A stretch of 64,000 nt of DNA from an uncultured Gammaproteobacteria bacterium (GTDB lineage: Bacteria > Patescibacteriota > Patescibacteriia > Magasanikbacterales > GWA2-37-8): positions 678,509 through 742,508 of the forward strand of contig CAZQUL010000001.1 of the NCBI GenBank assembly GCA_964596525.1. The letters run 5' to 3'. The position numbers and the translations under genes were made by a program. Numbering within the stretch: the stretch's first letter is position 1; each line of letters opens with the position of its first letter. The notes beneath the pieces are model-generated. The model was not told the DNA's origin. It made no database searches and worked only from the letters and a program-made list of their open reading frames with translations. Shown piece by piece: positions 7,650-57,630 of the stretch.

Positions 7650-8954
7650 ATGATGTTCGGTAGCAAAAAAACTTCACCACCGCCGCCGGAGCAGGGAACA
7701 CCGGCTATTTCCGTCGAGGGAATGCCGCAAGAATTTTATGGTGGCGCCAACCCCGTAGTCTCATTTAAGACTGTGCCTAAAGAAGTAGTGTTTCGTCCTG
7801 AAACTCCCGAAGTCCCAGTAGCTGATAAAAAAGCATTCGAAGAGCAAACTGCAGTGGGAGGAGGGGATCCGTCGCATCCCATACACTGGTTTTCTAACCC
7901 CAAAAAACTCGCCCTGCTTTCGGCTGGTATTTTGGGTATCACCATCATTGGTGTAACGACGTATTATCTGGCCACTGCCCGCCAGAATATGACTGTACCA
8001 CCTCTTTTCACTAATACTACATCGACAGCTACTTCTACGCTTGCCGACTCCACCTCCACCCTTCCTGCCGATACTACGCCAGTTGCAACTCCTTCTGTTA
8101 CAGGAAACGAACAGCGACTCGATACTGCTTCGCTTGTGCTTACCGACGATCGCGATAACGATGCGGACGGCCTTACCGATGTGGAGGAGGAGCTTTACCG
8201 TACTGATCCGGAAGTCAAAGATACCGACCGCGACACGTATCCGGACGGACATGAGCCGTTTTACCTCTATAGCCCTACCGAACGCGAACCGGGTAAACTT
8301 ATTGAAAGTGGTTCGGTGCGGGAATATAGCAATCCGACGTTTGGCTACACGCTCTATTACCCATCTGGTTGGGTTGTTGATACGGTTGATCCGCAGTATC
8401 GTCATGTGCTCTTCAGTACGTTGCGCGGCGAGTACGTCGGTATCCAGGTGTTCGATCGTTCCGGGTCCGAGCCGTTCGAGGCGTGGATGGCTCGCGTAGC
8501 CACGACCGAGCGCTTGAGCGATTACCAGAATTTCATGTCCCGTTTTAATGAGCCGGGCGTTGGACGCCAAGATCGTTTGGTGTACTTTTACGTATCGCCA
8601 ACGCGTATTTATGCTTTAACGCTCCACAACGGTACCGAAGCTGGCCGGCCACTTGCCTACCGCCAGACGTTTACTGTTATGGCCCGCAGTTTCCGTACGA
8701 ACGACGGTGCTGAAGCGGTTAATTTGACCGCTACGCTCCCGGAACCTGAACCGCGCTTGCCGCCACTCGTCATTCCGACATCAACGCCGGAAGTTACCTC
8801 CTCTCCTGAGTTTGCACCTGGGACTTTCGAGGCAGCGGCTTCTTCGACCGCACGCGTTACCACAACCGAAGCGGGTGTTACTTCGACCGTCACGAGCACT
8901 GTTTTATCGACCACAACCGTGACGTCTACCCCAACTACCTCTTCACCACTTTAA
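7650..8954 (+). CDS. Third TSP3-repeat membrane protein, with an extra C-terminal domain of about 200 aa and a Ser/Thr-rich tail.
   Basis: A TM helix (LALLSAGILGITIIGVTTYYL) is followed by a Thr/Ser linker, then DNDADGLTDVEE...RTDPEVKDTDRDTYPDGHE. A C-terminal TTTVTSTPTTSSPL-type tail follows. Confidence 0.6.
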   Translation: MMFGSKKTSPPPPEQGTPAISVEGMPQEFYGGANPVVSFKTVPKEVVFRPETPEVPVADKKAFEEQTAVGGGDPSHPIHWFSNPKKLALLSAGILGITIIGVTTYYLATARQNMTVPPLFTNTTSTATSTLADSTSTLPADTTPVATPSVTGNEQRLDTASLVLTDDRDNDADGLTDVEEELYRTDPEVKDTDRDTYPDGHEPFYLYSPTEREPGKLIESGSVREYSNPTFGYTLYYPSGWVVDTVDPQYRHVLFSTLRGEYVGIQVFDRSGSEPFEAWMARVATTERLSDYQNFMSRFNEPGVGRQDRLVYFYVSPTRIYALTLHNGTEAGRPLAYRQTFTVMARSFRTNDGAEAVNLTATLPEPEPRLPPLVIPTSTPEVTSSPEFAPGTFEAAASSTARVTTTEAGVTSTVTSTVLSTTTVTSTPTTSSPL

Positions 8955-8964
8955 TTTCCGTACC

Positions 8965-9483
8965 ATGCTTGAGGTTTATAACCAGCCACGGGTGCGCCTC
9001 CCGCTTTCGCGAGAGCGCATCGCTGCCATTGTAAGGCTGGTAGAAAAGAATCTGCGCCAGGGGAGGATCGAGGGGGAGGCGGTTTTCACTGCGCCGCGCT
9101 CCATGCAAGCGCTCAACCGTACATACCGCGGTAAAAATTATGCCACGGACGTGCTTTCTTTTGCGCTCGACGAACAGGTTGATTGGCCTGGGGAGAGGGC
9201 AAAAAAAACTTCCTTTACCGTGCAACTTTACCTCTGCCCTGCGGTTATCAAGAAACAAGCACGCCGGTTCAAAGTTCCCGAGCGCGAGGAGTGTGCTCGC
9301 ATGATCATCCATGGTCTACTGCACGCAGCTGGATATGACCATATGGTCCGCGCCGAAGCCGTCACTATGTTTACGTTACAAGAAACGATTCTAGCCCGCT
9401 TCTTGTCGCCGCGTTCGCGCCGACCTCTTTCTGTCCTCACAAAAGAAGAAATGGAGCGCCGCTTCGTAGTTCCTCATCAGTAA
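8965..9483 (+). CDS. ybeY: Endoribonuclease YbeY (rRNA maturation factor).
   Basis: The HGLLHAAGYDH zinc-binding motif is the UPF0054/YbeY signature. The size is 172 aa. It is followed by dgkA, as in the conserved phoH-ybeY-dgkA arrangement. Confidence 0.85.
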   Translation: MLEVYNQPRVRLPLSRERIAAIVRLVEKNLRQGRIEGEAVFTAPRSMQALNRTYRGKNYATDVLSFALDEQVDWPGERAKKTSFTVQLYLCPAVIKKQARRFKVPEREECARMIIHGLLHAAGYDHMVRAEAVTMFTLQETILARFLSPRSRRPLSVLTKEEMERRFVVPHQ

Positions 9484-16728: not shown

Positions 16729-18729
16729 TTAGCGGCCTGAAGAAGGGCGGCGAGATTGGCGTGTCCGCACGGCAGACGGCAAGGAGCTCGAAGGGCGAGG
16801 TGCTCCGGAATGGCGCAAGCGGTGCGTGAGGCCAAAAACGGCGGCTAAGATAATGATGGTTACGGCGATCGAAATGCCGATGGTGGCATACCAGAAACGT
16901 TCGCGTGCTGAGAGTCCCTCCCCGCTGCCCCACACGCCAAATTTCAGCGGCGTGCTCTTGAGTTGCTTTATCTCAGCATACGAAAATTGATTATCTTGAT
17001 TCACTACCAGTGTATTTCCTGTGGTGTCATACCATCCTTCTCCTGCCATAAGCGTGTCAGTAAGGCGAGAGAGACCTTCGGGCCAGAACGTAGTTGTGAG
17101 CGAGATGACGGGGTATTCTTTTTCGAGAAATGTTTCAAGTACTGCGAAACGTCCAGCCATGTTCATGCGGGCGGAAAGTTCCGGGGCAGCAACCGTAAGC
17201 GAAGGTGGGTCGATGAGACGTTGCAATGACGGAAAAAGAGTGGGTTGCGAGCTGATGAGCACCGAAGGTTTGGTAATGTCGATGTCGGGATGAAGCCAGT
17301 TGACCGTTGGACGTAAGGGGCGAGGGCTTAAGCGTTGCCAGAGTGTTATAAGGCGTGCGGCAGCATTCCAGGATCGCTCATCGTTTTTTTCGACGAAGAG
17401 ATCGAATACCGGCAGAAGTGCTTGCGGGAATTTATCGAAAAGCGGAGTAAAAATAGGGGATGAGGTGGCGGTAATAAATGAGGTTGCGTCGATATCGAGT
17501 GTCATGTTGTGTAGTCCGATACGACAGTTGCCGCCGGGAGGGGTGTAGTTAGCAATGATATCTAGTTTATTGTCACGCGCTAGAAATTCATCGGGAAGTT
17601 CGATGGTGCGGCGAAAACGTTCACCCTCTTCGGAAAGAGCGTAAGAATCCACGAGGTGATTATTAAGAAATGTCGCCAGCGTCCCTATGCCACCTTTTTG
17701 CAATACCGAAGAAATACCGTGCAGATTCAAGCTGATGTTACGAACCGGGCCGCCCAAAGCCGCTTGCGAGAAACCAATAGTGGTTTTTGTTTCTCCGGAG
17801 CCTTGCAGTCTTAGCAATGGATAGCCAAGCTCCTTGAGATCTAGATGGTAAGAAGTAGTAGGGAAAAATGGGGTGCGGGCAAACGTAGTGTCACTATTTT
17901 TAGTCAGGAGTAGTTCGCGGACCGGAGATGAGAACAGGGTTTCGACTGCTTCGTTTAGGTGGTCGGGTGCGGCGGAAAGCGCGAGGATTGGCCAGCCGTT
18001 ACTCGCGGGAACAAGGGTGAGGCGGGGAATGGTGCTTGAGCTAGAAGTAATAAGCACGGCGCGTTCGTAAGGACCGATACCTGGCGCGTCCAAGGTGCGC
18101 GCTGCAACCCGCACATCGATTGCACGGCCATTTAAAAGATGCTGTGTCCGGCCGGCTAAATTGAATGCGGCAGTGAGTTCTTCTGCGGTTGGAACCGGGG
18201 AGACGTAAATGGCTAGGCGCCGCAAAGTCGGTGGGAAAAAATCTTTAAGCGTCGCTGGTTTTTGCGCGTCCCCGTCTACCGTTACACGGATATCTGAAAT
18301 ATCGATCCAACGGGCCCGTAACGCCGAGCATGTGTCAGTATCGCTTGATACCATAACGGCTCGCAGGGAAACCGTCAGCCGACCGTCTTCAACCGGCAGG
18401 TTGGTAAGAGGGAAAATAACTTCTTGAGGTTTGGAATTAAAGGCAAAGCTTGCAACTAGCCGACCTTGGTGCTCGAGAGCTATGAAACCATCGCCGATAT
18501 TGGGAGTAGGGGTAAGGTAAAACCGCATGTCTACGGGCGTCTGTCCGTTGGCTACAGGGATGGAAACGAAACTCTCCGCATTGGTTCCGCTTAGGCGCAC
18601 GCTTTCCCCGTATCCGTAATCATGTAGCGAAAATTCTTCGAGGGCAATAGCCGGACGCGCAAAACAACCTATCATCAATGTGAAAAGAACGGAGGTGAGT
18701 TTATAAAAGAGATTCTTTTTTTGTCTCAT
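16729..18729 (-). CDS. Large periplasmic/exported protein with an N-terminal signal and a C-terminal TM anchor. Possibly a BcsB-like partner subunit of the adjacent GT2 synthase.
   Basis: 666 aa. The N-terminal hydrophobic segment is LTSVLFTLMIGCF, and the C-terminal TM is WYATIGISIAVTIIILAAVFGL followed by a basic tail. It lies downstream of the processive GT2 gene, the same gene order as bcsA-bcsB. No catalytic motif recognised. Confidence 0.4.
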   Translation of the reverse strand: MRQKKNLFYKLTSVLFTLMIGCFARPAIALEEFSLHDYGYGESVRLSGTNAESFVSIPVANGQTPVDMRFYLTPTPNIGDGFIALEHQGRLVASFAFNSKPQEVIFPLTNLPVEDGRLTVSLRAVMVSSDTDTCSALRARWIDISDIRVTVDGDAQKPATLKDFFPPTLRRLAIYVSPVPTAEELTAAFNLAGRTQHLLNGRAIDVRVAARTLDAPGIGPYERAVLITSSSSTIPRLTLVPASNGWPILALSAAPDHLNEAVETLFSSPVRELLLTKNSDTTFARTPFFPTTSYHLDLKELGYPLLRLQGSGETKTTIGFSQAALGGPVRNISLNLHGISSVLQKGGIGTLATFLNNHLVDSYALSEEGERFRRTIELPDEFLARDNKLDIIANYTPPGGNCRIGLHNMTLDIDATSFITATSSPIFTPLFDKFPQALLPVFDLFVEKNDERSWNAAARLITLWQRLSPRPLRPTVNWLHPDIDITKPSVLISSQPTLFPSLQRLIDPPSLTVAAPELSARMNMAGRFAVLETFLEKEYPVISLTTTFWPEGLSRLTDTLMAGEGWYDTTGNTLVVNQDNQFSYAEIKQLKSTPLKFGVWGSGEGLSARERFWYATIGISIAVTIIILAAVFGLTHRLRHSGAPRPSSSLPSAVRTRQSRRPSSGR

Positions 18730-18773
18730 ATAACTCTTTTATGATACCATATTCCTGCTTATCAAGAAATTTT

Positions 18774-19163
18774 ATGCCGCACTTCCTAATTGTTGAAGAC
18801 GATGAATTTTTGGCCGATGCGTACCAAGCGTTTCTCAAAAAACGCCACCACACCTTTGATATCGCGCATGATGGGGCTGAGGCCTTGCGTATGATTGATA
18901 AAAGAAAACCGGAGGTGGTGATTCTTGATTTGGTGATGCCCAACGTTGACGGAGTCGCCTTCCTTAAGACGCTAAAAAAACAGAATCTTTTGGATGACAT
19001 GCCAGTGATCGTTGCATCGAATATCTCTGATAATGAGACTATGGAAGAATGTAAGAAACTGGGGGCTCGTGATTTTATTGTAAAAAGTTCTTCTTCGCTT
19101 AATGAGCTTATGGAGCGTTCTTTGGCACTTCTCGCGCCGTCGCGGACATCAAAAAGAAAATGA
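18774..19163 (+). CDS. Stand-alone CheY-like response-regulator receiver domain.
   Basis: FLIVEDDEFLADA (acidic pocket), phospho-acceptor D in VVILDLVMP, then VIVASN and the conserved K in FIVKS. Start taken at the internal ATG 18774 (MPHFLIVEDD). Confidence 0.75.
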   Translation: MPHFLIVEDDEFLADAYQAFLKKRHHTFDIAHDGAEALRMIDKRKPEVVILDLVMPNVDGVAFLKTLKKQNLLDDMPVIVASNISDNETMEECKKLGARDFIVKSSSSLNELMERSLALLAPSRTSKRK

Positions 19164-19197
19164 TCAGCTTAATTTTTTAGGCCGTCAATTATTTTTA

Positions 19198-19231
19198 ACC
19201 CGCCATGCCTACAAAGCGTGGCGGGTTTTTT
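19198..19231 (+). terminator. Terminator of the receiver gene, overlapping the 3' end of the convergent GT2 CDS.
   Basis: Hairpin AACCCGCCATGC...GCGTGGCGGGTT followed by TTTTTT on the + strand. Confidence 0.5.
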
Positions 19232-21119
19232 CCCAGCGGTAGGGTGAGCGGACAAATTGCCAGAGTGCTCGGTAACAGGCGACGCTTATGAAGAGCCAAT
19301 AAATTGGTAAGAGGGGAATATAGGGAAGCAAGTATAATTGGCGGCGTTTTACCGCAACAACGGCATGCACGATCATTTGGGAAAGATTGCCGATGATAAG
19401 GTTGAAAATGCCAATATAGCGGAAGAGGAGTGTGGGAATAGGAACTGACAGGAACGTTGAAAATGGCAAGAACGATGCGGCGAACATGCACCAGAGTAAT
19501 GGATTAAAAAGAGGAAGAAAAAAATTGGAACCCACAGTAAATAAGCCGCTTGCATATCGCTTGAGCCCGACACTCTTAATGGCTTTGATGGGGTGGGCGG
19601 CATGAACAAGGAAGGTGATGAAAAACCCTTTTTCCCAACGCGTGCGTTGTCGAATCCAGTTTCCTAGCAAGCTATTTGCCTCCTCGAGAGTGTAGGAGTT
19701 GACAAGCGCAGTGATGAGTCCGTAATCGTAGATGCGTACACCCAAATCTGCGTCTTCTGTAACATTGTACGGGTCCCAGCCGCCGATACCTTTTAGATAC
19801 TTGGTGGGGAAATGATTACTCGTTCCCCCGAGGGGGATTGCTCCGCCCACTTCTTGGCTGCCCGGAAGGTAAAAATCATACCAAAAACCGTACTCGAGCG
19901 AAAATAAACGAGTTAAAATATTGCGTTTGGTGTTGTAAAAATTGAGACGTGCCTGCACGCAGACCGTGGTGAGGGCCGATCGACGAAAAGCGGCAATCGC
20001 TTTTTTGAGTTGATCTGGGTCTGGCCGATCTTCGGCGTCGTAAATAACGATGAACGAGCCGCGGGCAAAGCTTAGCGCGTAGTTGCATGAGCGGGGTTTG
20101 GTAGACAATTCAGCTATGGGCACTTTGACATGTTCGGCCATGAGCGCTTCCGGTGTTGCGTCGTTTTCGTGTTGGCCGATGCCGTGGGCGTGGAGTGCGG
20201 CGATGGTGGTAGTGTCGTTTACTTCGGTAATGAATTTAATATCGAGTTTTTCGCGTGGATAGTTTAGCGCAAAGAGATATTTAACAAGCTGAGGCACCAT
20301 TGCCGCTTCGTTCTTGAGTGGGACGAGAATGGTGTAGATTGGGAGCTCGTCGTCGGTTATGGAGTTTATCTCTTCTTCTTTTACCTGGATAAGGTGTGTG
20401 GGTTGGAAAGAACGAGAAAATACGTAAATTTTAAAAGGATTAAGAAAAAAATAAATGACATTGAGCGTTATGAAGGTGCCTAAGACGAGGGGAAATGGCC
20501 AAAGCCATAGACCTAACGCATAGAAGGCTAAAAAGCCGAGAGGAAAAACGTAGGGTACAAGCAGTGTGCGGTAGTGGCGGCTGGAGTAATCTTGCTTGAG
20601 CACTTCGATTCGATCGGTGGCAGTGATATCCAGTTCATGGCGGTAGGCGAAGGCGAGTGCGGAGCGGAGTGTGTTGGGAGGGGCTAGCGAGAAATGAGTC
20701 AGTGGCTGGCCGAGAAAGGCACTGAAAAGATCAACAGTCTCTTGAGCGATGAAGGGGGTTGCCGCTGCGAACCACACGGCACCGTTTGATTCGTATACTA
20801 AGATCTGGTGCTCGATAGCTATCTCGGCGGGAATAAGGCTAGAGACTGCCCCGGTGGGAGTTAGGTTGAGAGGAATCTCTTTAAGCAGGGGAACATCAAG
20901 AATATGAGCGAGATTCTCGTAGAAGTTATGTTCCTTGGCGTATCCTTTGAGAATTATTTTTTCAAGCGGGTGGTCTTCATGTTTAATGATCTCTTCGATG
21001 TGCTGAAAAGCCGCTTTTTTAAAAATTCGTTCATTGAGCAGTTTTTTGTTTCGCAAGCGTGGTAAAATGTTCGTGGAGTATATCGAGCGCGCGTTCCTCA
21101 TGGGCAGATTTTTGTACAT
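19209..21119 (-). CDS. Processive family-2 glycosyltransferase (cellulose/chitin/hyaluronan-synthase-like) with an N-terminal T2SSE_N-like cytoplasmic domain.
   Basis: GT2 DxD in VIYDAEDRPDPDQ and the QxxRW motif (IRQRTRWEKGF), with multiple TM helices on both sides. The N-terminal 170 aa (LAHILDVPLLKEIPLNL...LIPAEIAIEHQILVYESNGAVWFAAATP...) resembles the GspE/MshE N-terminal domain. Confidence 0.8.
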   Translation of the reverse strand: MYKNLPMRNARSIYSTNILPRLRNKKLLNERIFKKAAFQHIEEIIKHEDHPLEKIILKGYAKEHNFYENLAHILDVPLLKEIPLNLTPTGAVSSLIPAEIAIEHQILVYESNGAVWFAAATPFIAQETVDLFSAFLGQPLTHFSLAPPNTLRSALAFAYRHELDITATDRIEVLKQDYSSRHYRTLLVPYVFPLGFLAFYALGLWLWPFPLVLGTFITLNVIYFFLNPFKIYVFSRSFQPTHLIQVKEEEINSITDDELPIYTILVPLKNEAAMVPQLVKYLFALNYPREKLDIKFITEVNDTTTIAALHAHGIGQHENDATPEALMAEHVKVPIAELSTKPRSCNYALSFARGSFIVIYDAEDRPDPDQLKKAIAAFRRSALTTVCVQARLNFYNTKRNILTRLFSLEYGFWYDFYLPGSQEVGGAIPLGGTSNHFPTKYLKGIGGWDPYNVTEDADLGVRIYDYGLITALVNSYTLEEANSLLGNWIRQRTRWEKGFFITFLVHAAHPIKAIKSVGLKRYASGLFTVGSNFFLPLFNPLLWCMFAASFLPFSTFLSVPIPTLLFRYIGIFNLIIGNLSQMIVHAVVAVKRRQLYLLPYIPLLPIYWLFISVACYRALWQFVRSPYRWEKTRHAL

Positions 21120-21200
21120 CTCGCATGAGGCGTTGTAAACGATCTTCGAGAACGAGTAACGATGATACGGTGGTGGTTGCAGTGAGGATAAGCTTGGTTT

Positions 21201-21422
21201 TCATATAGTACGTTTTGGACGCAGTAGCGAATCAATTATCTCTTCGCGTTCCTGAACCAACCCTGCGGCGGTGGAGAAAAATTTTTCCCAGTCGCCCCGT
21301 TCGGAGGTGGGTAGCGTGCCGAGATAATTGCGCCAGCCTTGAATTTTATTTTTCATGAGCTTTGTTATCTCGCGTGCTTCGATAAGGGCGTCGCGGGGGA
21401 TAGTCTTTCCTTTTTTGTTCAT
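21201..21422 (-). CDS. Hypothetical small protein.
   Basis: 73-aa ORF between the GT2 gene and manC with plausible, non-shadow composition. Its start codon abuts the manC ATG at 21423. Confidence 0.3.
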   Translation of the reverse strand: MNKKGKTIPRDALIEAREITKLMKNKIQGWRNYLGTLPTSERGDWEKFFSTAAGLVQEREEIIDSLLRPKRTI

Positions 21423-22430
21423 ATGAAAAAACTACGTATTGCTCCGGTCTTGGTGGGAGTAATTTATGCGGGTGGTAACGGCACAAGGCTTTGGCCGATT
21501 TCTACGGCGGAAAACCCCAAGCAGATCAATACGGTTTTTACGGGCAAGAGCATGGTGGTTGAGGCGTACCGCCGGGCACGACTTTTTCTTCCTCCGGAGC
21601 GTATTGTTGTGGTAGTGACTGCGGCTCTTTATCCAAAGGTTTTCGCTGCGTTGGATCTGCCGGTGCGTAACTATATTATACAACCCAAAAACGCCGACAC
21701 CGCGAGCGCTTTCGCATTGACCGCCTTGGTTCTGGAAACATTATACCCCGGCGCCGTGGCAGTGACCATCTATGCCGACCATATTGTTCTTAATACACGG
21801 CGCTACATTGCGGCGGTGCACGAAGCGGCTCGTCTTGCTAGAAGCAAACATGCGCTGGTTACTATTGGCACTAAACCACTGTATCCAAACCCGCTTTTTG
21901 GCTATATCAAGCTCAAGAAAGAACGCCTCGCTCCTAACGTTCATACCGCTATCGCGTTCGTTGAGAAACCAACTATTGAACAGGCTAGACGATATATTTC
22001 TTCGCATCAATACGTGTGGAATACTGGCTTATACGTATGGGAGCCCACGGCAATCCTGCATATTTTTAAACGCTATGCCACAGAGTTTTACCAGGCTCTT
22101 CTTGCGCTGCGGGCTTTTATTCTAACGCCTGATTTCGATCGCCAACTGGCGCGTTGGTACGGCTATATCAAACCAGTATCGTTTGAACGACAGGTATCGG
22201 AACGCATGCAAGGTCTCTACGTTCTGGTAGCTGATTATGCGTGGAAAGATCTCGGTAATTGGAATGTGATTTATGAGGTTGCCGGCAAGAATGCGGCGCG
22301 CCACGCGCTTCTGGGTGAAAAACCGGCAAAATTCGTTTCAGTAGATAGTTCCGGATGCTTGCTGCTTGCGCCCGGTAAAAAAGTGGCACTCATAGGAGTG
22401 AAAGATCTGGTAGTGGTCGGAGACCGATGA
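21423..22430 (+). CDS. Mannose-1-phosphate guanylyltransferase-like sugar nucleotidyltransferase.
   Basis: GGNGTRLWPIS matches the GGxGTRLWP motif of ManC/GMP-type NTP transferases. Start taken at the internal ATG 21423. Confidence 0.75.
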   Translation: MKKLRIAPVLVGVIYAGGNGTRLWPISTAENPKQINTVFTGKSMVVEAYRRARLFLPPERIVVVVTAALYPKVFAALDLPVRNYIIQPKNADTASAFALTALVLETLYPGAVAVTIYADHIVLNTRRYIAAVHEAARLARSKHALVTIGTKPLYPNPLFGYIKLKKERLAPNVHTAIAFVEKPTIEQARRYISSHQYVWNTGLYVWEPTAILHIFKRYATEFYQALLALRAFILTPDFDRQLARWYGYIKPVSFERQVSERMQGLYVLVADYAWKDLGNWNVIYEVAGKNAARHALLGEKPAKFVSVDSSGCLLLAPGKKVALIGVKDLVVVGDR

Positions 22431-22589
22431 CACCCTACTGGTTATGGCGCGTGAGGCGGCAGCTGACGTTAAAAAAGCTGTTTGTAAGCTAAATGATTAA
22501 TGTTGCGCGCAGAACGCAAAGTAATGAAAAAGACCTAAAAGGCTGCTGGTGCAAGGTTTTTCACACGAACGGGGCCGTTCTGCAAACTA

Positions 22590-22618
22590 TTGACAAAAGA
22601 GCTTTTTTATGATACACT
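22590..22618 (+). promoter_or_regulatory. σ70-type promoter (TTGACA-17-TACACT) for the 22659 gene.
   Basis: TTGACA at 22590-22595, a 17-nt spacer, TACACT at 22613-22618, and GGAGGA SD at 22644-22649. Confidence 0.55.
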
Positions 22619-22658
22619 TTTGAGTTAAGTGTCCCAACCCTGAACTGGAGGATAATAA

Positions 22659-22919
22659 ATGAGTGTTGATGTGCTCAAAGAGCTGTGTGAGGCCGGTGCC
22701 CGCTACGTTACCCGTCTCCAGGGTGCGTTGGATATGAGGTGGCGGATCTACTGTTACTATGCCCTGAATCCTACCCGCGGGACACCTGAAGTGCTGGAGT
22801 GGGTGTCTGCCAACCTCACCCGGGTCCAGAGGCGTCTCAACGAGGTTGAAGAGGCCCTGCGGCATCTGCAGGACGCCTACCAACGCGCCGCGGCCAAAGC
22901 CGCCTTGCTCGCCGCCTAG
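22659..22919 (+). CDS. Hypothetical 86-aa protein with GC-rich codon usage.
   Basis: Good promoter and SD. The C-terminal half is helical and heptad-like (LTRVQRRLNEVEEALRHLQDAYQRAAAKAALLAA). No motif recognised. Confidence 0.45.
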   Translation: MSVDVLKELCEAGARYVTRLQGALDMRWRIYCYYALNPTRGTPEVLEWVSANLTRVQRRLNEVEEALRHLQDAYQRAAAKAALLAA

Positions 22920-23029
22920 TCGCGAGAGGGGGTGGCACGAAAACCGCCCCTTACTCGTTATGTCCATACCATGTGTGGTTATAACGAGAGGGCGGTTTTT
23001 ATAATTTAAAAAGAGCCGGTAAATAAGAT

Positions 23030-23467
23030 TTACAAGCTCATGAGAGTGAAGGTTTCGGTTACGCTTCGTTCAATGGAGCAGTTTTGCCTGCCGAGCGTAG
23101 CGACGCAGTCCCAAAGTCCGCGGCCAAGGGACTTGTAGATATCCACGCGGGCACGGATGCTGTGGTTGATGGCAATGCCGGTAACCGGGCCGGATTCAGT
23201 ATCCGCGGAAGCGACGAAGCGCTCGTTGAGTACGATCGGGCCGTCAAAGCGCTGAATATGAACGGCTACCGTGCTGTCGTTACCGTTCACGATAGTCACT
23301 ACGCCGCGCTCCACATCAGTGAGCGTGATGTATATACTTACGCCCGCGAGCGTGAAATGGAAATGCTTATTGCTTGAGTAAAGCGGTGTGGGCGGGGGTT
23401 CGCAGGCAGTAAACGACGTGAAAAAATAACCGATGACGAGACCGATGAGAAGAGATCGGCGACGCAT
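23030..23467 (-). CDS. Hypothetical lipoprotein.
   Basis: N-terminal MRRRSLLIGLVIGYFFTSFTAC, a signal peptide with a lipobox-like Cys. 145 aa. Confidence 0.45.
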   Translation of the reverse strand: MRRRSLLIGLVIGYFFTSFTACEPPPTPLYSSNKHFHFTLAGVSIYITLTDVERGVVTIVNGNDSTVAVHIQRFDGPIVLNERFVASADTESGPVTGIAINHSIRARVDIYKSLGRGLWDCVATLGRQNCSIERSVTETFTLMSL

Positions 23468-23647
23468 GAGTGCCTCCTGAGTTCCTTAGTACGATGCCTC
23501 GTACTCATTGCTATGTCAATGATCTGAACGACAATTCGATTGTTTAAAATTCATCTATTTTTTAAACATAATTAAGGATGTTTAAAGTTGCAGATTTGAA
23601 TGCGGTAATTTTGAACACTCCACGTTCTCTACTCTTACAGTCTCTGG

Positions 23648-23676
23648 TTGACAAAAAATGAGATACACCTTATAAT
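23648..23676 (+). promoter_or_regulatory. Perfect consensus σ70 promoter (TTGACA-17-TATAAT) for the M50 protease gene.
   Basis: TTGACA at 23648-23653, an exact 17-nt spacer, TATAAT at 23671-23676, and AGAGGGGGAG SD before the ATG at 23734. Confidence 0.7.
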
Positions 23677-23733
23677 GCGCTGTTTAGCTCTATAGCCAGG
23701 GCTAAATTCAACGAACAGCAGAGGGGGAGTTAA

Positions 23734-24669
23734 ATGGACAAGAAAAAGAACCGTTTGCTCGCGTGGCCAGCTGTGATCGTAACCAAGTCGACCCAACTCA
23801 TGAAGGCCTTTAAGCTCTTTAAAGCGCTCAAGATCGCCAAGTTCGCACTCACCTTTCTGACGATGACCCTGTCGGCCGTGGCGTATTCATTCCGCTATGG
23901 AAGCTGGTCTTTCGCTGTCGGGTTCGTTATCATGCTCTTTATTCATGAGATGGGCCATGTCGTTGCTCTCCGGGAGCGGGGATATCGGGCTTCGCTGCCT
24001 GTGTTCATACCGTTTCTCGGTGCGCTCATCTTCGCTCCAAGGTTCTCCTCGTCCGAAGATGAGGCGTATGCGGCGTACGCTGGTCCGTTGTTTGGCACCA
24101 TCGCCGCCGCTACCGCCTTTCTGCTGTGGTTTACGGGGATGTGTCCCTTCAACAGCATGCTCCTCGTGAGTTTCTCGGGTGCGCTCCTCAACCTGTTCAA
24201 CCTTATGCCGGTACCGCCGCTCGATGGCGGGCGCGTTACCCGCGCGGTTGGAAGCTGGTTCAAATGGATCGGGATGGTGATGCTGCTTCTACTCTTGATT
24301 GCTGGCCAGGATGCGGCGCTCCTGCTCGTCTTCCTCATGGCCATCAGGGAGCTCGAAATCAGTCCCGCCGCCAAGTTAAAAGTCGGTGCGACCTGCTTTG
24401 TGGTCATGACTGTGCTGCTCGCGCTCGGTTTCACTAAGCAGCACTGGATGATTTCGGTTGTCGATGTGGTGATCGGCACGGTCTTTCTTCTTAACGTGCT
24501 GAGCGATGTGGCGAGTGATCATGAGAATCCGACCCCCGCTGTGCCCGAGGTCGCTAGTCCGAATCCTCGCCGCTTCATGTGGCTCGGTCTATACCTTGCG
24601 CTGGTCGGTGTGCTGCTCGCCCTCATGGCAGCGCACACCCCGTATCTCGCCCAGATCGTAAAGCGCTAA
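23734..24669 (+). CDS. Membrane-embedded zinc metalloprotease of the M50 (site-2 protease/SpoIVFB-like) family.
   Basis: HExxH in a TM helix (LFIHEMGHVVAL) plus the second M50 signature NLFNLMPVPPLDGGR. Polytopic membrane protein, 311 aa. Confidence 0.7.
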   Translation: MDKKKNRLLAWPAVIVTKSTQLMKAFKLFKALKIAKFALTFLTMTLSAVAYSFRYGSWSFAVGFVIMLFIHEMGHVVALRERGYRASLPVFIPFLGALIFAPRFSSSEDEAYAAYAGPLFGTIAAATAFLLWFTGMCPFNSMLLVSFSGALLNLFNLMPVPPLDGGRVTRAVGSWFKWIGMVMLLLLLIAGQDAALLLVFLMAIRELEISPAAKLKVGATCFVVMTVLLALGFTKQHWMISVVDVVIGTVFLLNVLSDVASDHENPTPAVPEVASPNPRRFMWLGLYLALVGVLLALMAAHTPYLAQIVKR

Positions 24670-24933
24670 GGCAGGGCTCACTGTACCTAAAACCACCCCA
24701 TCAAAAAACCATAAGCCCACCACGTCTTGCGCGAGATGTTCCGGTGGGTTTTTTCAAAAACAGTCCTCAGAGTTTGAGGACCGTTTTTGTTTTGCAGGAG
24801 ACTGAGATATGCTCCTAGAGTTTTATTAGTGTGTAACTTTCTATTATCCGCAGAAAATCTTGCCTTTCCCCCTTTTCTGTGAATATGCTGTAGTACGAAC
24901 GTAAAGACATGCGTTCAGTACAGGAGAGCTGCA

Positions 24934-25566
24934 ATGTTGACGATTACCTCTATCCCTGACCACCGTTCGTTTGAGGAGCTCGGCCCTCATATTAACGAGA
25001 TTCACCTGGTGGGGCAGCTTACGGGTTGGGTTTTCGATATCCTCGAAAAACGAGCGCCTAATCTCAAGCTCATCGAGCTCGGTCCTTCTCTTTTAGCGAG
25101 CCTTCCCTTCCGCATGCGCGAGAAATGCCGGGCAAAGGGGATAGTGCTCAAGGCGAACTGCCTTCCGCCCCTCATTACTCGGCGCCCGCCGGAACCGCGG
25201 GATCCCCATTTCGCCAGCAAGCGGCGCATACTCCGTTCGCTGCGCGGTATTGGCCGGCGGCGACTCCAGTTCCTGCTAAAGAATAAGTACAAACCCGCTC
25301 AAGACCTTCTAGCGTATTATGGGGTGCGGGCGAGAAAGAATAGCGCGGCGTCTTCTGAAGCGCCTCCTCAATTCTTGACCGTACATATGCGGGCAGTTTT
25401 TGCCTGCATTCACCCGACACAGGTGGTGGATTCGAAAGTGCTCGAGCGGGCCTGGAAACTTTACCTGGCCAGCTTTGCTCAAGCGGAACTCGAACCATTC
25501 CTGAGCAAGCTCAAGAAGATCGAGGTTAGTTTTCAGGCCGCCTTCGAAGCCGGCCTTGAGAATTAA
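24934..25566 (+). CDS. Hypothetical protein with a probable helix-hairpin-helix motif.
   Basis: LRSLRGIGRRRLQFLL resembles the HhH GIG motif of UvrC/ComEA-type DNA-binding modules. The rest is unrecognised. AGGAGA SD is present. Confidence 0.4.
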   Translation: MLTITSIPDHRSFEELGPHINEIHLVGQLTGWVFDILEKRAPNLKLIELGPSLLASLPFRMREKCRAKGIVLKANCLPPLITRRPPEPRDPHFASKRRILRSLRGIGRRRLQFLLKNKYKPAQDLLAYYGVRARKNSAASSEAPPQFLTVHMRAVFACIHPTQVVDSKVLERAWKLYLASFAQAELEPFLSKLKKIEVSFQAAFEAGLEN

Positions 25567-25686
25567 GGTAGGCCACCCTCTTTAAGATAAACCCATGCCG
25601 TCCGTAAGGGCGGTTTTAATATACATATAAGTTAGCCAAAATATTGCTTATTATTTTAAACTATCCACAGCATCTCCGGGTATATC

Positions 25687-25714
25687 TTGACAACATATCC
25701 AAATATGCTATTCT
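25687..25714 (+). promoter_or_regulatory. σ70-like promoter (TTGACA-16-TATTCT) for the high-GC lipoprotein gene.
   Basis: TTGACA at 25687-25692 and TATTCT at 25709-25714. Confidence 0.45.
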
Positions 25715-25739
25715 GGCCCAGTCTCAAGCGCTTTTTGGT

Positions 25740-25784
25740 CCGGTGCCTTTCATGCATTCCTATTTTGTGGGTGAAGGGCACCGG
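25740..25784 (+). promoter_or_regulatory. Near-perfect 13-bp inverted repeat in the leader of the lipoprotein gene: CCGGTGCCTTTCA-N19-TGAAGGGCACCGG.
   Basis: The arms at 25740-25752 and 25772-25784 are reverse complements with one mismatch. The repeat sits between the promoter and the SD (ACAGGAGG). Confidence 0.45.
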
Positions 25785-25811
25785 GGCATTCCGCCCCACA
25801 GGAGGTGCGCT

Positions 25812-26285
25812 ATGAAGATGTCCAATAAGAAGGGTCTCCGTTCCGTCATGTTCTCCGTCGCCCTCGCCGGCTTCGCCCTCATCGGTGGCTGCGGCCTGCC
25901 GCCGGAGGACTACGTCGGAACCGAGGAGCTCGTCTGCCAGAAGGGTTCCCAGGTGGGGGCGCCGATCGTCGTGGGCTACGTGCTCGGTAACAGCGGCCTG
26001 CTGCTGAGCGACGTGGCCAGCCGAACCATCGTCGTGACCGAGGAGAGCGGAGCGTCGAGCGCGAACACCCAGAACTTCGCTGCGAACGCCGGCAAGTCGC
26101 TCGGCACGAAGCAGCTCAAGGACAGCGTGCTGCCCTGCAGTGTGGGCCGCCTCACCATCAAGACCTTCGTCACGCTGACGAACGACAGGGGTGAGGCGCA
26201 GGGGTCGGAGTCCTACGACTACCGCGCCGACCTCGAGCACCCCGCGACCGCGGTTCAGCTCAAGCTGACCATGGTCCAGAAGTAG
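25812..26285 (+). CDS. Hypothetical lipoprotein with strongly GC-biased codon usage (third positions largely G/C).
   Basis: MKMSNKKGLRSVMFSVALAGFALIGGC, a signal peptide with a lipobox LIGGC. The codon usage is unlike the flanking genes. Confidence 0.55.
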   Translation: MKMSNKKGLRSVMFSVALAGFALIGGCGLPPEDYVGTEELVCQKGSQVGAPIVVGYVLGNSGLLLSDVASRTIVVTEESGASSANTQNFAANAGKSLGTKQLKDSVLPCSVGRLTIKTFVTLTNDRGEAQGSESYDYRADLEHPATAVQLKLTMVQK

Positions 26286-26417
26286 CGGCTGCGGCCTGAG
26301 CTGCGCCCGCTGCGCCCCGGATGAACGGGGCGCTTTTGTTTTTTGACTTTTTGTCCTCGGCAGAGTAAGGTGATGGATCGTCGAATGCTTCGACGAGAAT
26401 AACGTAGGGAGGTAGCC

Positions 26418-26978
26418 ATGCCGCAATCACCGTGGCCTCAACAGGTAGTCTTTTCGGAACTCAATTATCCCAGTTTCGCCAAAGCGTTTCGTCAGGCTGC
26501 TACGTTTAGGCAGGTAGGCGATCGATTGAGTATCGAAGATTTTTCTGGCAGCTCTTGGGCTTTGCAGCCTGGTTGCCCTATGGATGAAACATCGATACCG
26601 TATGCGGCGATCGTTCGCGGTCGGCGTTATATCATCGATGTCGACGATACCGAGGTGGACGAGCAGGGTAAACGGATCGTGTTTGAGCTGGTAGAGATTA
26701 AAAGCTATCAGCCTACTGATGCTGATCGCGTAGCAGATATCCGGGCGTGCCTCGAGTACCTTAATCCCACGATCGAGCGCTCGCTTGACGTGCCGCTCGT
26801 GCCGCCGTGGCCTGATGCGCCGCGCATCGAGGAAGGTGCTATTAAGATCGTCATGACGGTCAAGTACGTTGGCGAGCGCTACAGCGTGCTCGCCCTCGAA
26901 CCGCTGGCGCCCGTCAACGCGTCTGATGGGGCGGGTCTTAGCTGGTTCCAGCGTCTCTTGAAGCGATGGTTTTTTTAG
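26418..26978 (+). CDS. Hypothetical protein.
   Basis: 186-aa ORF co-directional with its neighbours. No motif recognised. Confidence 0.4.
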   Translation: MPQSPWPQQVVFSELNYPSFAKAFRQAATFRQVGDRLSIEDFSGSSWALQPGCPMDETSIPYAAIVRGRRYIIDVDDTEVDEQGKRIVFELVEIKSYQPTDADRVADIRACLEYLNPTIERSLDVPLVPPWPDAPRIEEGAIKIVMTVKYVGERYSVLALEPLAPVNASDGAGLSWFQRLLKRWFF

Positions 26979-27232
26979 GAGGTGCAAACGTAAGCGTGCT
27001 TTGTAGCTCTTATCTCATCGCGTACCACGCGAGCTCAAAGCGCGTAAACCAGAGCTGAGCCAAAAATTCCGCAAAGATTAGTCGTCCGCCCTTCATACGG
27101 GGCGGATATTTGTTTTTTATATTAGGGTTGAGCATACCTGATGCGGTGCTTAAAATCTTGACAATAATCGTCTTCTTTGCTATGCTTAACCGTCAATTAC
27201 ACGCACTGTCAAAACATTGCTGGAGGTGTATC

Positions 27233-27484
27233 ATGCAGTCCCTGGACGATCTTAAGGCCCATTTGGCGCGAGAGCAGGTTCTTTACTACGATCTGTTCGG
27301 TACACTCGGCCCGGTTCGGGCTGAGGTGCTGCGCACTATTACGTGGGAGAGGATTACGTGCACAGAGTGCCCGGCTGCCTTTGAAGCCGTGGTTAAGCTG
27401 CCTGAGCTGGGTTTCATCAGAGACGTTGTGCTCCAGTTCCACAGCGACAGCGTCAATGGAATTTTCTTGCGTATCAACCCCTGA
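27233..27484 (+). CDS. Hypothetical small protein.
   Basis: ATG at 27233 preceded by a GGAGGTG SD at 27222-27228. 83 aa. Confidence 0.4.
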   Translation: MQSLDDLKAHLAREQVLYYDLFGTLGPVRAEVLRTITWERITCTECPAAFEAVVKLPELGFIRDVVLQFHSDSVNGIFLRINP

Positions 27485-27572
27485 TTGCTCCACGCTACCA
27501 ATCACGCGCGCCCTTACGGTACAGAGCGTAGCTCCTGCCTTGGGCGCGCTCTTTAATTTTGCATGCAGATAA

Positions 27573-27602
27573 TTGACAAAATCCTGCTTTTTCTGCTATA
27601 AA
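27573..27602 (+). promoter_or_regulatory. σ70-type promoter of the ABC-F gene (TTGACA-18-TATAAA).
   Basis: TTGACA at 27573-27578 and TATAAA at 27597-27602. Confidence 0.55.
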
Positions 27603-27630
27603 ATCTCGTATTACTCCGCTTAAAATCCCT

Positions 27631-29097
27631 ATGAACCACGGTAACGTGATTCTCAGTTTCGACAAAGTTTCCTTCTATTACCACGAAGATCGCTACCTGC
27701 TTGAGGAAGCGAGTTTTTCGGTGCGCGAAAACGCCAAAATCACGATCATGGGGCAAAACGGCGCCGGTAAGTCCACGATTTTTAAAATGATCACCGGCGA
27801 ACTTAAACCCGAAAAAGGCCAGGTAAATATCCGCCCCGGTGCATCGATCGCCATTGCGACGCAGGTGATGAGCCGTGAGAATCTCGAAAAGACGGTTGAG
27901 GAATTTTTTGCCGCCGCCTTTGACAAGAAACTTTACGATCTCCCCAAGCGCATCAAGGACATTCTGGAAGTCGTGCATCTTTCCGCTCCGCTCGATAAAA
28001 AAATCCGCCAGTTTTCCGGCGGACAGCAGGCGCGCCTTCTTCTTGCTTATGCGCTTATCCAAGAACCGGACATTCTGCTTCTTGATGAACCGACCAACAA
28101 TCTCGATGCCGAAGGTATAGCGCATCTAACGCAGTTCCTTATCGATTATCCCAAAACCTGTCTTGTCATTTCGCACGACGCCACGTTCTTGAACGCGTTC
28201 ACGCACGGCGTTTTGTATCTCGACTCATTTACGCACAAAGTTGAGCAGTACGTGGGTGACTATTACGACGTGCTTGGCAAAATCGAAGAGCAGATAGAGC
28301 GCGAACGCATGAAAAACGCACAGCTCAGAAAAAGCATTTTGGATCGTAAAGAGAAAATCAACTTCTTTGCCAATAAAGGTGGTAAGATGCGCAAGCTCGC
28401 GAGCAAACTACGCGACCAAGTGGCCGAAGCCGAAGATGAGATGGTCGATGAGCGCCAAGAAGACCGGACGATCAACGAATTTATCATTCCCGCACAGGAA
28501 GGCCTTGTCGGGCCGGTCGTGGAAATTAATTCCGTCGGCATCATGATCGATCATGAACCGGTACGCAAAGCAGTGTCGCCGGCGGTAAGTGTACGCAAGA
28601 AAGACAAGCTCCTCATTCACGGCCCGAACGGCATTGGCAAATCGACGCTTCTGGCGGCACTTGCCGAGAAACGGGAAGAGGGTGCGGCTATCGCGCCGGA
28701 TGTTGTTATCGGCTACTATCGCCAAGATTTTTCCGGACTCGACTTTAATAAAACCGGTTACGAAGCGCTCGCCGAAATGATGCATCAGCCGTGGAACCAG
28801 GAAATTTACGCGACTGCCGCGCAGTTTCTACTCACGCCGGCGATTCTTAAAAATACCGTCGGGTCGTATTCTGAAGGACAGAAGGGTTTGCTCTGCTATG
28901 CGCGCTTCGTCTTGCAGAAGCCGGGACTTCTTATCATGGATGAGCCGACCAACCATATCAACTTCCGCCATTTGCCGATCATCGCCAAAGCGCTTGCCGA
29001 ATTTGAAGGCGCGCTCATCGTGGTGAGCCATGCCTACGAGTTCGTCGCTGAGCTCGGTATTACGGATACGCTTGATTTGAGTAGTTTAAAAAACTAA
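27631..29097 (+). CDS. ABC-F family ATPase (two tandem ABC domains, no TM domain).
   Basis: Walker A motifs IMGQNGAGKST and IHGPNGIGKST. ABC signatures FSGGQQARLLLA and YSEGQKGLLCYA. Walker B/D-loops ILLLDEPTNNLD and LLIMDEPTNHI. No TM helices. Confidence 0.85.
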   Translation: MNHGNVILSFDKVSFYYHEDRYLLEEASFSVRENAKITIMGQNGAGKSTIFKMITGELKPEKGQVNIRPGASIAIATQVMSRENLEKTVEEFFAAAFDKKLYDLPKRIKDILEVVHLSAPLDKKIRQFSGGQQARLLLAYALIQEPDILLLDEPTNNLDAEGIAHLTQFLIDYPKTCLVISHDATFLNAFTHGVLYLDSFTHKVEQYVGDYYDVLGKIEEQIERERMKNAQLRKSILDRKEKINFFANKGGKMRKLASKLRDQVAEAEDEMVDERQEDRTINEFIIPAQEGLVGPVVEINSVGIMIDHEPVRKAVSPAVSVRKKDKLLIHGPNGIGKSTLLAALAEKREEGAAIAPDVVIGYYRQDFSGLDFNKTGYEALAEMMHQPWNQEIYATAAQFLLTPAILKNTVGSYSEGQKGLLCYARFVLQKPGLLIMDEPTNHINFRHLPIIAKALAEFEGALIVVSHAYEFVAELGITDTLDLSSLKN

Positions 29098-31637: not shown

Positions 31638-31973
31638 ATGAACAATAAATTATTTGTAGGTTCGTTGTCGTTTGATACGACTGAAGAAAGCTTGGCCCAG
31701 GCCTTTTCTGTGGCTGGCACCGTTAAATCCGCCAAAGTCATGACCGATAAATTCACCGGTCGTCCGCGCGGTTTCGGTTTCGTAGAAATGGGCAGCGACG
31801 AAGAAGCCCAGAAAGCCATTGAAATGTTGAATGGTCAGGCGATTGATGGCCGCCCAGTTGCGGTTAGCATCGCTCGTCCGCTCGAAGATCGTCCGCCTCG
31901 CCGCGCCGGTAACGGTGGTGGTTTCGGTGGTGGTCGTGGTGGTTTTGGCGGCGGTTCCCGCGGTCAGTTCTAA
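31638..31973 (+). CDS. RRM-type RNA-binding protein with a Gly-rich C-terminal tail.
   Basis: RNP-2 KLFVGSL and RNP-1 RGFGFVEM, with a C-terminal GGGFGGGRGGFGGGSRG. Confidence 0.85.
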   Translation: MNNKLFVGSLSFDTTEESLAQAFSVAGTVKSAKVMTDKFTGRPRGFGFVEMGSDEEAQKAIEMLNGQAIDGRPVAVSIARPLEDRPPRRAGNGGGFGGGRGGFGGGSRGQF

Positions 31974-35787: not shown

Positions 35788-36495
35788 ATGGATCTTATTG
35801 CTAAAACAAAAGCTGATTATAACCGCATTGCTGGCGCGTATGCTTTGACGCGCAGTGCTGAGCGCGAACTTGTTCAGTTTGAGCATTTTGTAGAACCGGG
35901 TCGGGCGATTTTGGATTGGGGTTGTGGCAACGGCCGACTCGTGCATGTGTTTAAAGGAAAACAAGCCCGCTATATTGGGGTAGATCAAAGCGAAGAAATG
36001 ATTGCCGTTGCGCGCGAAGAATTTAAGAATGAAATTGCTGCTGGGTGGGCAACTTTTGAAGTCACTCCGGGATTACCGCCGTGGCAGTTCGCTGATGCGA
36101 ATTTTGACGGTATTTTTATGATTGCTTCGTTTCATCATCTTCCGGATGTTGAGAGTCAGCTGGCAATACTGTGCGAAGCGCAGCGGGTCCTTAAGCTGGG
36201 CGGATTTCTTGTTATCACAACGTGGAATCTGACGAGTCGGTGGGCAAGGGAACAGATCGGTAACGATTTGTGGCAAAAGGTAGGTGAATACGATTTTATA
36301 ATTCCTTGGAAAAATAATCGTGGGGAAATAGTGGTCGAAAGATATTATCACCATTTTGAACCAGCAGAACTCATATCTTTATGTGAACGGGCAGATTTTT
36401 CTATTAAAAAATCATTTTGGTCAGACGGGGTAGGGGAGGTAAGTCGCGAAAATGGTAAAAACTTGGTAATTATTGCTGTTAAAGAAAACCATTGA
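35788..36495 (+). CDS. Class I SAM-dependent methyltransferase.
   Basis: Motif I ILDWGCGNGRL. Motif II/post-I VDQSEEMI. Motif III-like LKLGGFLVITTW. Confidence 0.75.
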   Translation: MDLIAKTKADYNRIAGAYALTRSAERELVQFEHFVEPGRAILDWGCGNGRLVHVFKGKQARYIGVDQSEEMIAVAREEFKNEIAAGWATFEVTPGLPPWQFADANFDGIFMIASFHHLPDVESQLAILCEAQRVLKLGGFLVITTWNLTSRWAREQIGNDLWQKVGEYDFIIPWKNNRGEIVVERYYHHFEPAELISLCERADFSIKKSFWSDGVGEVSRENGKNLVIIAVKENH

Positions 36496-57540: not shown

Positions 57541-57630
57541 TGCCTGGCTTTTGTGAGAAAGGTGGTTGAGAAATCGATTGCCTTTCAAAAAGGCTGCCTA
57601 CGGGCAACCTCAATACTATTTATCTTATTT

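Follow-up and report, generated by a model that had tools for sequence, protein, structure and literature searches.

Seven Shine-Dalgarno-led genes rich in G/C-ending codons between manC and an ABC-F gene of a Patescibacteria genome, a candidate native accessory region

Does a run of genes with shifted third codon positions have to be an imported island, or may such a shift belong to resident genes themselves? The question is raised by a segment of about 5 kb in a 64-kb stretch of contig CAZQUL010000001.1 (the whole stretch being called the window), which lies between the end of a manC-like gene (22430) and the start of an ABC-F gene (27631) and carries, among others, the gene of a site-2-type M50 protease. 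The initial annotation had read this segment as horizontally acquired cargo. Its seven genes (the block), named by the residue counts of their products except for M50, are g86 (22659-22919, plus strand), g145 (23030-23467, minus), M50 (23734-24669, plus), g210 (24934-25566, plus), g157 (25812-26285, plus), g186 (26418-26978, plus) and g83 (27233-27484, plus), while 44-45 other genes of the window form the comparison set. These bounds and this set of open reading frames (ORFs) hold as first drawn, and all seven ORFs are also called as genes in a public collection. Identical copies of the seven proteins and of ABC-F are encoded by an NCBI contig of 1,343,778 bp and by Logan contig L001, whose proteins agree one by one with those of the window over the part that it covers. 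The host belongs to the Patescibacteria, or candidate phyla radiation (CPR), with a small genome (~1.34 Mb) of about 52% GC, and the closest relatives of its ABC-F carry labels such as Magasanikbacteria, Peribacteria, Parcubacteria, Patescibacteria and similar. The reading preferred here, with moderate confidence, is that the block is a native variable accessory region of seven monocistronic genes led by Shine-Dalgarno (SD) sites, and not one imported island.

The codon shift is real. Synonymous GC content at third codon positions (GC3s) ranges from 0.58 to 0.92 in the seven block genes (pooled 0.686), while 44 other genes of the window have a pooled value of 0.534 (mean 0.518, SD 0.061), a difference with a Mann-Whitney p of 2.3e-6, or 2.9e-4 without g157. 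The seven-gene run of highest GC3 in the window is exactly this block, which is matched by 9 of 200,000 gene-order permutations. Amino-acid composition is rejected as the cause, as the residual GC3 after conditioning on it stays positive across the block genes (+0.05 to +0.39). Both C3 and G3 are raised and A3 is lowered, the enriched codons being CTC, CTG, GCG, GTG and CGG, and the codon deviations are correlated among the block genes (0.60 for g157 against the rest, 0.40 for M50 against the rest). Taken singly, only three genes rise above the native range, namely g157 (z ~6.4 relative to the native spread), M50 and g86; g210, g186, g145 and g83 lie at or within its upper part, which is occupied by SHMT (0.64), ABC-F (0.59) and the gene of a 1253-aa protein (0.67). 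The gene at 25812-26285 (g157), singled out in the initial annotation as the extreme case, does reach 0.915. Of the claim that the segment is compositionally distinct, the synonymous part stands, but not the bulk part, since the GC content (0.537 versus about 0.52) and the tetranucleotide and dinucleotide signatures (z 0.1-0.5) are ordinary. Nor do the flanking genes have the special preference for GGT and ACC ascribed to them, as the usage of GGT (0.38 in the block, 0.39 outside) and ACC (0.44 and 0.39) is similar.

The second property common to the block is the manner in which its genes begin. A strong SD site precedes 7 of 7 block genes and, depending on the motif, 4-10 of the 45 remaining window genes (Fisher p 2.5e-6 to 1.5e-4), and the energy of the duplex with the anti-SD sequence is -7.4 to -13.9 kcal/mol in the block (mean -11.0) against a mean of -1.5 for the other window genes. 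The SD-less genes include ftsZ, ftsA, pyruvate kinase, ABC-F and manC, while very strong SD sites are found outside the block at the genes starting at 29245, 36555, 37811, 44050 and 50278. SD status is the same in the window and in the closest relative recovered, a 53-kb contig of 45% GC (L168) reached through the g210 family, for three shared genes, with the g210 homologue and a nucleoside hydrolase (IUNH) carrying an SD site and ABC-F having none. On this relative, a stronger SD site goes with higher GC3s (rho -0.60, p 0.0065), and on an unrelated CPR-like contig (L002) the corresponding values are rho -0.47 and p 0.066. The SD-led native genes of the window deviate in the codon direction of the block (Spearman 0.44; reached by 6.8% of random controls). 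Strong SD sites together with G/C-ending codons mark a minority of genes, and if this held genome-wide, it would point to translation being initiated in two ways within one small genome.

The block genes look independently transcribed and monocistronic, as the initial annotation had proposed, each having its own promoter-like site and/or terminator in addition to the strong SD site, and the spacers are long (110-266 bp, median 236 versus 84 elsewhere in the window). Both promoters named at the outset are present at their positions, one upstream of g86 (TTGACA-17-TACACT with TG, 22590-22618, plus; 10/12 consensus matches) and one of sigma-70 consensus type upstream of M50 (TTGACA-17-TATAAT, 23648-23676, plus; 12/12), and two more promoter-like sites precede g157 (TTGACA-16-TATTCT with TG, 25687-25714, plus) and g83 (TTGACA-17-TATGCT with TG, 27158-27186, plus). 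Between the convergent g86 and g145 lies a long hairpin with an A-run and a T-run (AAAACCGCCCC...GGGGCGGTTTTT, 22940-23003), read from the sequence, which is probably a bidirectional terminator and whose tail AGGGCGGTTTTTATA resembles the terminator tail of g210 (repeat D8). Terminator-like hairpins follow M50 (24763-24791, with T-tail), g210 (25597-25624) and g186 (27084-27117), and a strong intrinsic-terminator-like hairpin of 8 G-C pairs with a T-run follows g157 (26312-26343), all on the plus strand. The long spacers gave no match to structured RNAs in Rfam even at E<=1. The TTGACA-17-TAnnnT design also precedes ftsZ, ABC-F and the genes at 31638 and 35745, and promoter-like sites of the same style lie before native genes at 11321, 27573, 31483 and 35779; the block promoters are therefore uninformative on foreign origin.

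Comparison with the closest relative bears directly on the age of the locus. There, a homologue of g210 (P0131) lies 129 bp upstream of the orthologue of ABC-F, which is 84% identical to that of the window, with homologues of a GIY-YIG protein (63% identity) and of the IUNH protein (49%) nearby. The ABC-F promoter (TTGACA, a T-rich spacer of 17/18 nt, TATAAA) and the SD-less leader can be aligned between the window (27540-27645) and the relative (8700-8804), despite a difference of 7 points in GC between the two genomes. In the window, this promoter (TTGACA-18-TATAAA, 27573-27602, plus) is the right-hand limit of the variable segment. The arrangement of g210 beside ABC-F is therefore probably ancestral, and g210 is probably a resident gene, judging from position and family. 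Presence of the block in relatives, which had been proposed as a check, thus differs by gene, as g210 is found beside ABC-F in L168 while g157, g186 and g83, which stand between the two genes in the window, are absent there. No M50 gene is present within 8 kb upstream of the g210 homologue. Loci of ABC-F proteins of 52-77% identity in GTDB genomes have no neighbours in common with the window.

The GC3 excess of M50 recurs in other genomes. Homologues of this protease are GC3-richer than the ORFs of their own loci in 11 of 13 loci (mean +0.078, p 0.006), and in 10 of the same 13 after conditioning on amino acids (mean +0.067, p 0.017), while their absolute GC3 follows the host background, from 0.28 to 0.69 across loci. 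The homologue on L002 lies among gyrA, nusB, RNase III, RNase Y, truB and IF-2, and has a strong SD site (-12.9) and the second-highest GC3 of its locus (0.737 versus about 0.51-0.55). A steady positive offset over a GC3 that tracks the host is what a gene-intrinsic effect would produce, while repeated recent transfer would not yield it, so that the excess appears as a family trait and not as an import mark. This recurrent excess of the subfamily is worth following.

Under the preferred reading, each block gene would have a promoter-like site of sigma-70 type, an intrinsic terminator or both, along with a strong SD site and G/C-enriched synonymous codons, and the GC3 excess would go with the genes themselves, at least for M50 and g210, and not with an import event, because M50 homologues elsewhere show it and the SD-led genes of L168 are likewise GC3-richer. 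M50 and g210 would be long-term residents, the latter as the ancestral upstream neighbour of ABC-F; g157, g186 and g83 would be lineage-specific additions between g210 and the ABC-F promoter, and may be recent acquisitions or new genes, while g86 and g145 are probably lineage-specific too. Several findings weigh against this reading. Orthology of g210 and P0131, which are only 26% identical, is a matter of position and family membership; L168 is the one informative relative, so that insertion and deletion of the stretch from g157 to g83 are indistinguishable, and no relative shows presence or absence of M50, g145 and g86 at this position. Homologues of g86, g145, g186 and g83 are absent from the family libraries and loci, none of the four having been searched singly against large protein databases. 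A general rule linking SD strength to GC3 across CPR loci is unsupported, with a rho of -0.04 in 11 pooled loci (with crude gene calls), and among the non-block genes of the window the link is weak (rho -0.19 to -0.24, not significant; SD-led natives 0.569 versus 0.531). As it is weak or absent outside the block, L168 and L002, the SD link covers only part of the +0.15 shift of the block, and no class effect comes near the excess of g157 (+0.39).

Two other explanations of the shift have to be weighed. Arrival of the entire 5-kb interval from manC to ABC-F as a single cargo block from a GC-richer donor, as the initial annotation had it, would account for the GC3 shift and correlated codon deviations in 7 of 7 genes, for SD sites in all of them where most window genes have none, for spacers longer than elsewhere, and for the finding that none of the seven genes adjoins ABC-F in the next-closest loci (L006-L016). 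The block also resembles classical genomic islands in being a contiguous set of genes of unknown function with shifted third positions between housekeeping-type genes. It differs from them in that Pfam and PHROG scans found no mobility genes (integrase, transposase), no tRNA lies at a border (the sole tRNA of the window is at 45886), and no credible border repeat is present; the 18-nt repeat at 22581 and 27564, considered as an att site, is the TGCAnAnnATTGACAAAA -35 region of two promoters. The oligonucleotide signatures are ordinary and the promoters of native type, the g210 homologue adjoins the ABC-F orthologue in L168, and the offset of M50 recurs in 10-11 of 13 other genomes. A donor was not found either, g157 having no homologues and the six small proteins no phage or plasmid matches. 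Single-block transfer is thus improbable, and the claim of one acquired cargo block is not upheld; a strong GC3 shift is by itself insufficient to call horizontal transfer.

Expression-linked codon bias, in which strongly expressed native genes would favour G/C-ending codons and g157 would be an abundant Lpp-like lipoprotein, is a somewhat better candidate but still a doubtful one. Strong SD sites have been linked to predicted high expression in other bacteria, and the M50 promoter matches the consensus at 12 of 12 positions. The codon deviations of g157 correlate with those of the most biased native genes, namely the 1253-aa surface protein gene (0.50) and SHMT (0.39), and all three avoid A3 and prefer C3. 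However, SHMT and a radical-SAM gene have raised C3 but lowered G3, while both are raised in the block, and the correlation with SHMT is poor for M50 as well as for the rest of the block (-0.01, 0.09). FtsZ, FtsA and pyruvate kinase, moreover, have ordinary GC3 (0.50-0.55) and no SD site, and the window contains no ribosomal-protein genes by which optimal codons could be defined.

M50 itself (311 aa, GC3s 0.692, ~8 hydrophobic segments) is a predicted zinc intramembrane protease of the site-2 protease (S2P) type with a complete HExxH/LDG active site. It matches PF02163 at 43.7 bits (cut-off 27.2, E 2.6e-11). Both motifs reported initially are present, with HEMGH at residues 71-75 within hydrophobic segment 61-79 and NLMPVPPLDGG at residues 156-166 overlapping the separate segment 142-160, and H71, E72, H75, N156, P159, P162, D164 and G165 are invariant in a family alignment of 30 sequences. 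The family profile matches the cores of MjS2P (3b4r, E 5.5e-11 over ~150 residues) and SpoIVFB (8vjl, E 1.2e-4), which likewise carry HExxH and NxxPxxxLDG on separate hydrophobic segments. Unlike these solved cores, the subfamily (284-341 aa, with full-length homologues at 37-49% identity) adds a specific C-terminal extension of ~110 residues with three hydrophobic segments. Its best matches are metagenomic sequences and one labelled Harrisonbacteria, and the relatives with a name or an identifiable context are CPR-like.

S2Ps are classified into PDZ-containing RseP-like enzymes (group I), CBS-containing SpoIVFB-like enzymes (group III) and the domain-less groups II and IV (Kinch et al. 2006, as summarised in PMC10202637); according to this review, in-depth characterisation is lacking for every member of the domain-less groups. 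M50 has neither the PDZ domain of the RseP/RasP group nor the CBS domain of the SpoIVFB/MjS2P group, Peptidase_M50 being its sole Pfam match at E<=0.1, and is therefore placed in the domain-less groups. The precomputed Pfam assignments of its best 120 homologues contain PF02163 alone, save for one more distant match which also has PF13248. M50 is thus a new member of a known, little-characterised S2P group, one without PDZ or CBS domain and without a linked substrate, while the rest of the block is ordinary accessory content. Full-length homologues of the subfamily (32-39% identity) are also present on very large contigs classed as viral, namely L004 (identical to L166, IMG/VR UViG 3300046665_000548, 607,744 bp, match at 8001-8969), L005 (a 92.5-kb Logan contig) and L167 (a 199-kb IMG/VR contig). 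Dozens of tiny ORFs without Pfam matches surround the gene in these loci, of which L004 and L005 are syntenic, and the homologues may represent a site-2 protease borne by huge phages.

The small neighbours had been put forward as candidate partners or substrates of M50. In such a module for regulated intramembrane proteolysis, M50 would cleave a neighbour (the precursor or signal peptide of g145 or g157, or g210), which would then signal. The intact active site, the two lipoprotein genes flanking M50 and the relation of the g210 family to sigma-70 region 4, which by analogy recalls SpoIVFB and pro-sigma-K, are compatible with this, and signal-peptide processing by S2Ps such as RseP and Eep (PMC10202637) provides the one generic link to the neighbours. 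No neighbour, however, is conserved beside M50 homologues; when the neighbours at 18 M50 loci and the window were clustered, families were shared only by two pairs of closely related contigs. A tblastn search of ~170 fetched loci (about 100 of the M50 family, 80 of ABC-F) detected no homologue of the small proteins, no g210-family gene occurs near the M50-family loci, and the g210 homologue of L168 has no M50 gene in the 8 kb upstream of it. g210 has neither sigma regions 2 and 4 nor a membrane segment, and hydrophobic segments are lacking in g86, g210, g186 and g83, the signal peptide of g157 alone passing the threshold; the small proteins have no membrane segments other than the two signal peptides. 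Unlike in SpoIVFB-type systems, M50 has no anti-sigma, pro-sigma or BofA/SpoIVFA-like gene linked to it; the block gave no anti-sigma or sigma matches in Pfam, and the block neighbours include no adjacent single-pass membrane anti-sigma factor or membrane-tethered pro-protein. The partner hypothesis is without comparative or sequence support and is very improbable. The substrates of M50 would most likely be encoded at other loci, or be small peptides embedded in the membrane, e.g. signal-peptide remnants.

g210, a basic cytoplasmic protein of 210 aa with a strong SD site, had been taken for a helix-hairpin-helix (HhH) protein on account of a GIG motif. Its model does contain a helix, a short turn and a helix around L-R-G-I-G (residues 93-116), as in HhH proteins. 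The assignment is rejected, as GIG is not conserved in 20 homologues (family consensus L.GEQK.LF.ELL), no HhH model of Pfam matches at E<=0.1, and the only HhH-containing PDB entry listed has a Foldseek probability of 0.06-0.07. g210 is instead a short form of a family related to DUF1699 and sigma-70 region 4. Although g210 itself has no Pfam match, an exhaustive HMMER search identified 20 representative homologues (phmmer E 2.3e-15 to 9e-4), and among the 21 members including g210, Sigma70_r4 is found at the C-terminus of 13 and DUF1699 (PF08004) in the N-domain of 6. The family profile (alignment A2) scores g210 at 1.9e-51. Its members have an alpha/beta N-domain resembling DUF1699 and then a helical middle, to which the long forms add region 4; PDB matches are confined to sigma region 4 (profile positions 245-296). 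g210 ends at about profile position 216, before region 4, as do the other short forms P0128, P0131, P0134 and P0141, and has thus lost, or never had, this DNA-binding domain. As neither g210 nor its family has sigma region 2, they are no sigma factors, and a role of g210 in transcription is speculative. The AF2 model of g210 (alignment-based, pLDDT 85.6) has a small alpha/beta domain followed by helices, and a fold search with it against the PDB gave no significant match. A weak alignment of the helical middle with region 4, in the register to be expected (hhalign P 4e-4, probability 34%), is only suggestive of a region-4-like nature.

Many long forms of this family (P0130, P0135, P0138, P0142-P0145, P0147 and others) begin with a zinc-ribbon-like CxHGx5-6CxxC motif, so that the order in them is the Cys motif, the DUF1699-like alpha/beta domain, a middle weakly like a second region 4, and the bona fide region 4. 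It is a small family, for which 1.84 billion proteins yield 21 representatives at 50% clustering, and its contexts are chromosomal, beside dnaX or beside class II ribonucleotide reductase. The few literature matches to 'DUF1699' are all papers on human FAM83, unrelated to the archaeal Pfam family.

The two lipoproteins of the initial annotation are borne out, as g145 and g157 have N-termini with a basic region, a hydrophobic stretch and a lipobox cysteine, the lipoboxes having been judged by eye against the rule [LVI][ASTVI][GAS]C. g145 (145 aa, MRRRSLLIGLVIGYFFTSFTAC|EPPP; SD caggaggcactcATG; GC3s 0.648) begins with MRRR-SLLIGLVIGYFFTSF-TAC and has the lipobox ...FTSFTAC, while g157 (157 aa, ...FSVALAGFALIGGC|GLPP) begins with MKMSNKKGLRS-VMFSVALAGFAL-IGGC and has the lipobox ...ALIGGC. 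Both are putative exported, lipid-anchored surface proteins. g157 is the compositional outlier of the block, with a GC3 residual of +0.39 (z 9.8), GC by codon position of 0.60/0.44/0.92, and C3, G3 and A3 of 0.54, 0.38 and 0.02. It is also an ORFan, a search of 5.8 billion proteins returning the self-match alone, and a PDB sequence search with g145, g157 and g186 gave nothing meaningful, the lone match of g157 being at chance level (E 0.67). g157 may encode an abundant lipoprotein with very strong codon bias, may have come from a GC-rich donor not yet sampled, or may have arisen recently. An antisense ORF of 256 aa (25656-26426, minus), rich in Arg, Leu, Gly, Ala and His, spans g157 and ~150 nt of spacer on each side. 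It is rejected as a real gene in view of its GC1 of 0.77 and because it is the plus strand that carries the promoter, SD site, lipobox and terminator, and it is taken for an incidental product of the extreme GC3 in g157.

The remaining genes are the three small ORFs noted at the outset as lacking a known family, which still have none: the helical cytoplasmic g86 (86 aa, SD ctggaggataataaATG, GC3s 0.707), the acidic cytoplasmic g186 (186 aa, SD tagggaggtagccATG, GC3s 0.584) and the cytoplasmic g83 (83 aa, SD ctggaggtgtatcATG, GC3s 0.667), with no homologue detected for any of them. Pfam, NCBIfam and PADLOC gave nothing for the six small proteins of the block, PHROGs gave only chance-level matches for g86 and g145 (E 0.017 and 0.057), and tblastn against phages and plasmids gave none, nor did a scan of viral contigs with g186. 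Paralogy was found neither among the block proteins nor between them and other ORFs of the window. Lack of homologues and short length, with a GC3 sampling error of ~0.04-0.05, might suggest that g86, g83 and g186 are not genes at all and that their codon signal is short-ORF noise. This is hardly credible, as each has a well-spaced SD site and an ATG start, promoter-like and/or terminator-like sites are properly placed, GC by codon position has the coding pattern, and an independent gene caller found all of them.

A wider picture, itself rather unlikely to hold in full, would be compatible with these observations. The region 5' of ABC-F would be a hot spot gaining SD-led genes, g157 having arisen de novo or come from an unsampled GC-rich donor; the genome would have two gene regimes, with housekeeping genes that lack SD sites on one side and, on the other, GC3-rich accessory genes that carry them, the domain-less S2P included; and the g210 family, which combines a DUF1699-like domain with sigma-70 region 4 and, in some long forms, a Cys motif, would be an undescribed transcription-related family whose short forms lack the DNA-binding domain. 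The findings to follow are the contrast between SD-led and SD-less genes and the small region 4-related family of g210.

To the left of the block, the manC-like nucleotidyltransferase gene (21423-22430, plus; start as called in L001) matches NTP_transferase (Pfam, 1.5e-28) and ManC_GMP_beta-helix and has a GC3s of 0.469 and no SD site, while on the right the ABC-F-like gene (27631-29097, plus; GC3s 0.592) encodes a soluble protein with two ABC ATPase domains. Other window genes encode FtsA/FtsZ, YbeY, pyruvate kinase, SHMT, a BcsB-like protein paired with a family 2 glycosyltransferase (GT2), an O-antigen-ligase-like protein and giant surface proteins. The oligonucleotide outlier of the window is the gene of the 1253-aa protein (57553-61314, plus), in the 56-62 kb region, with a tetranucleotide z of 3.3-3.8, a codon-bias z of 24 and an A3 of 0.04; its secreted product, rich in Ser, Thr, Asn and Gly and having neither a Pfam domain nor tandem DNA repeats in its gene, is probably a major surface protein. 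The gene at 35788-36495 (plus) has the lowest GC3s of the window (0.348, residual -0.16, z -4.9), in the direction opposite to the block. Upstream of manC, the region 16729-21422 contains genes for the BcsB-like protein, a response regulator and the GT2 protein, which carries an MshEN domain, together with two small ORFs, and looks like a cellulose-synthase-like exopolysaccharide module, possibly c-di-GMP-linked.

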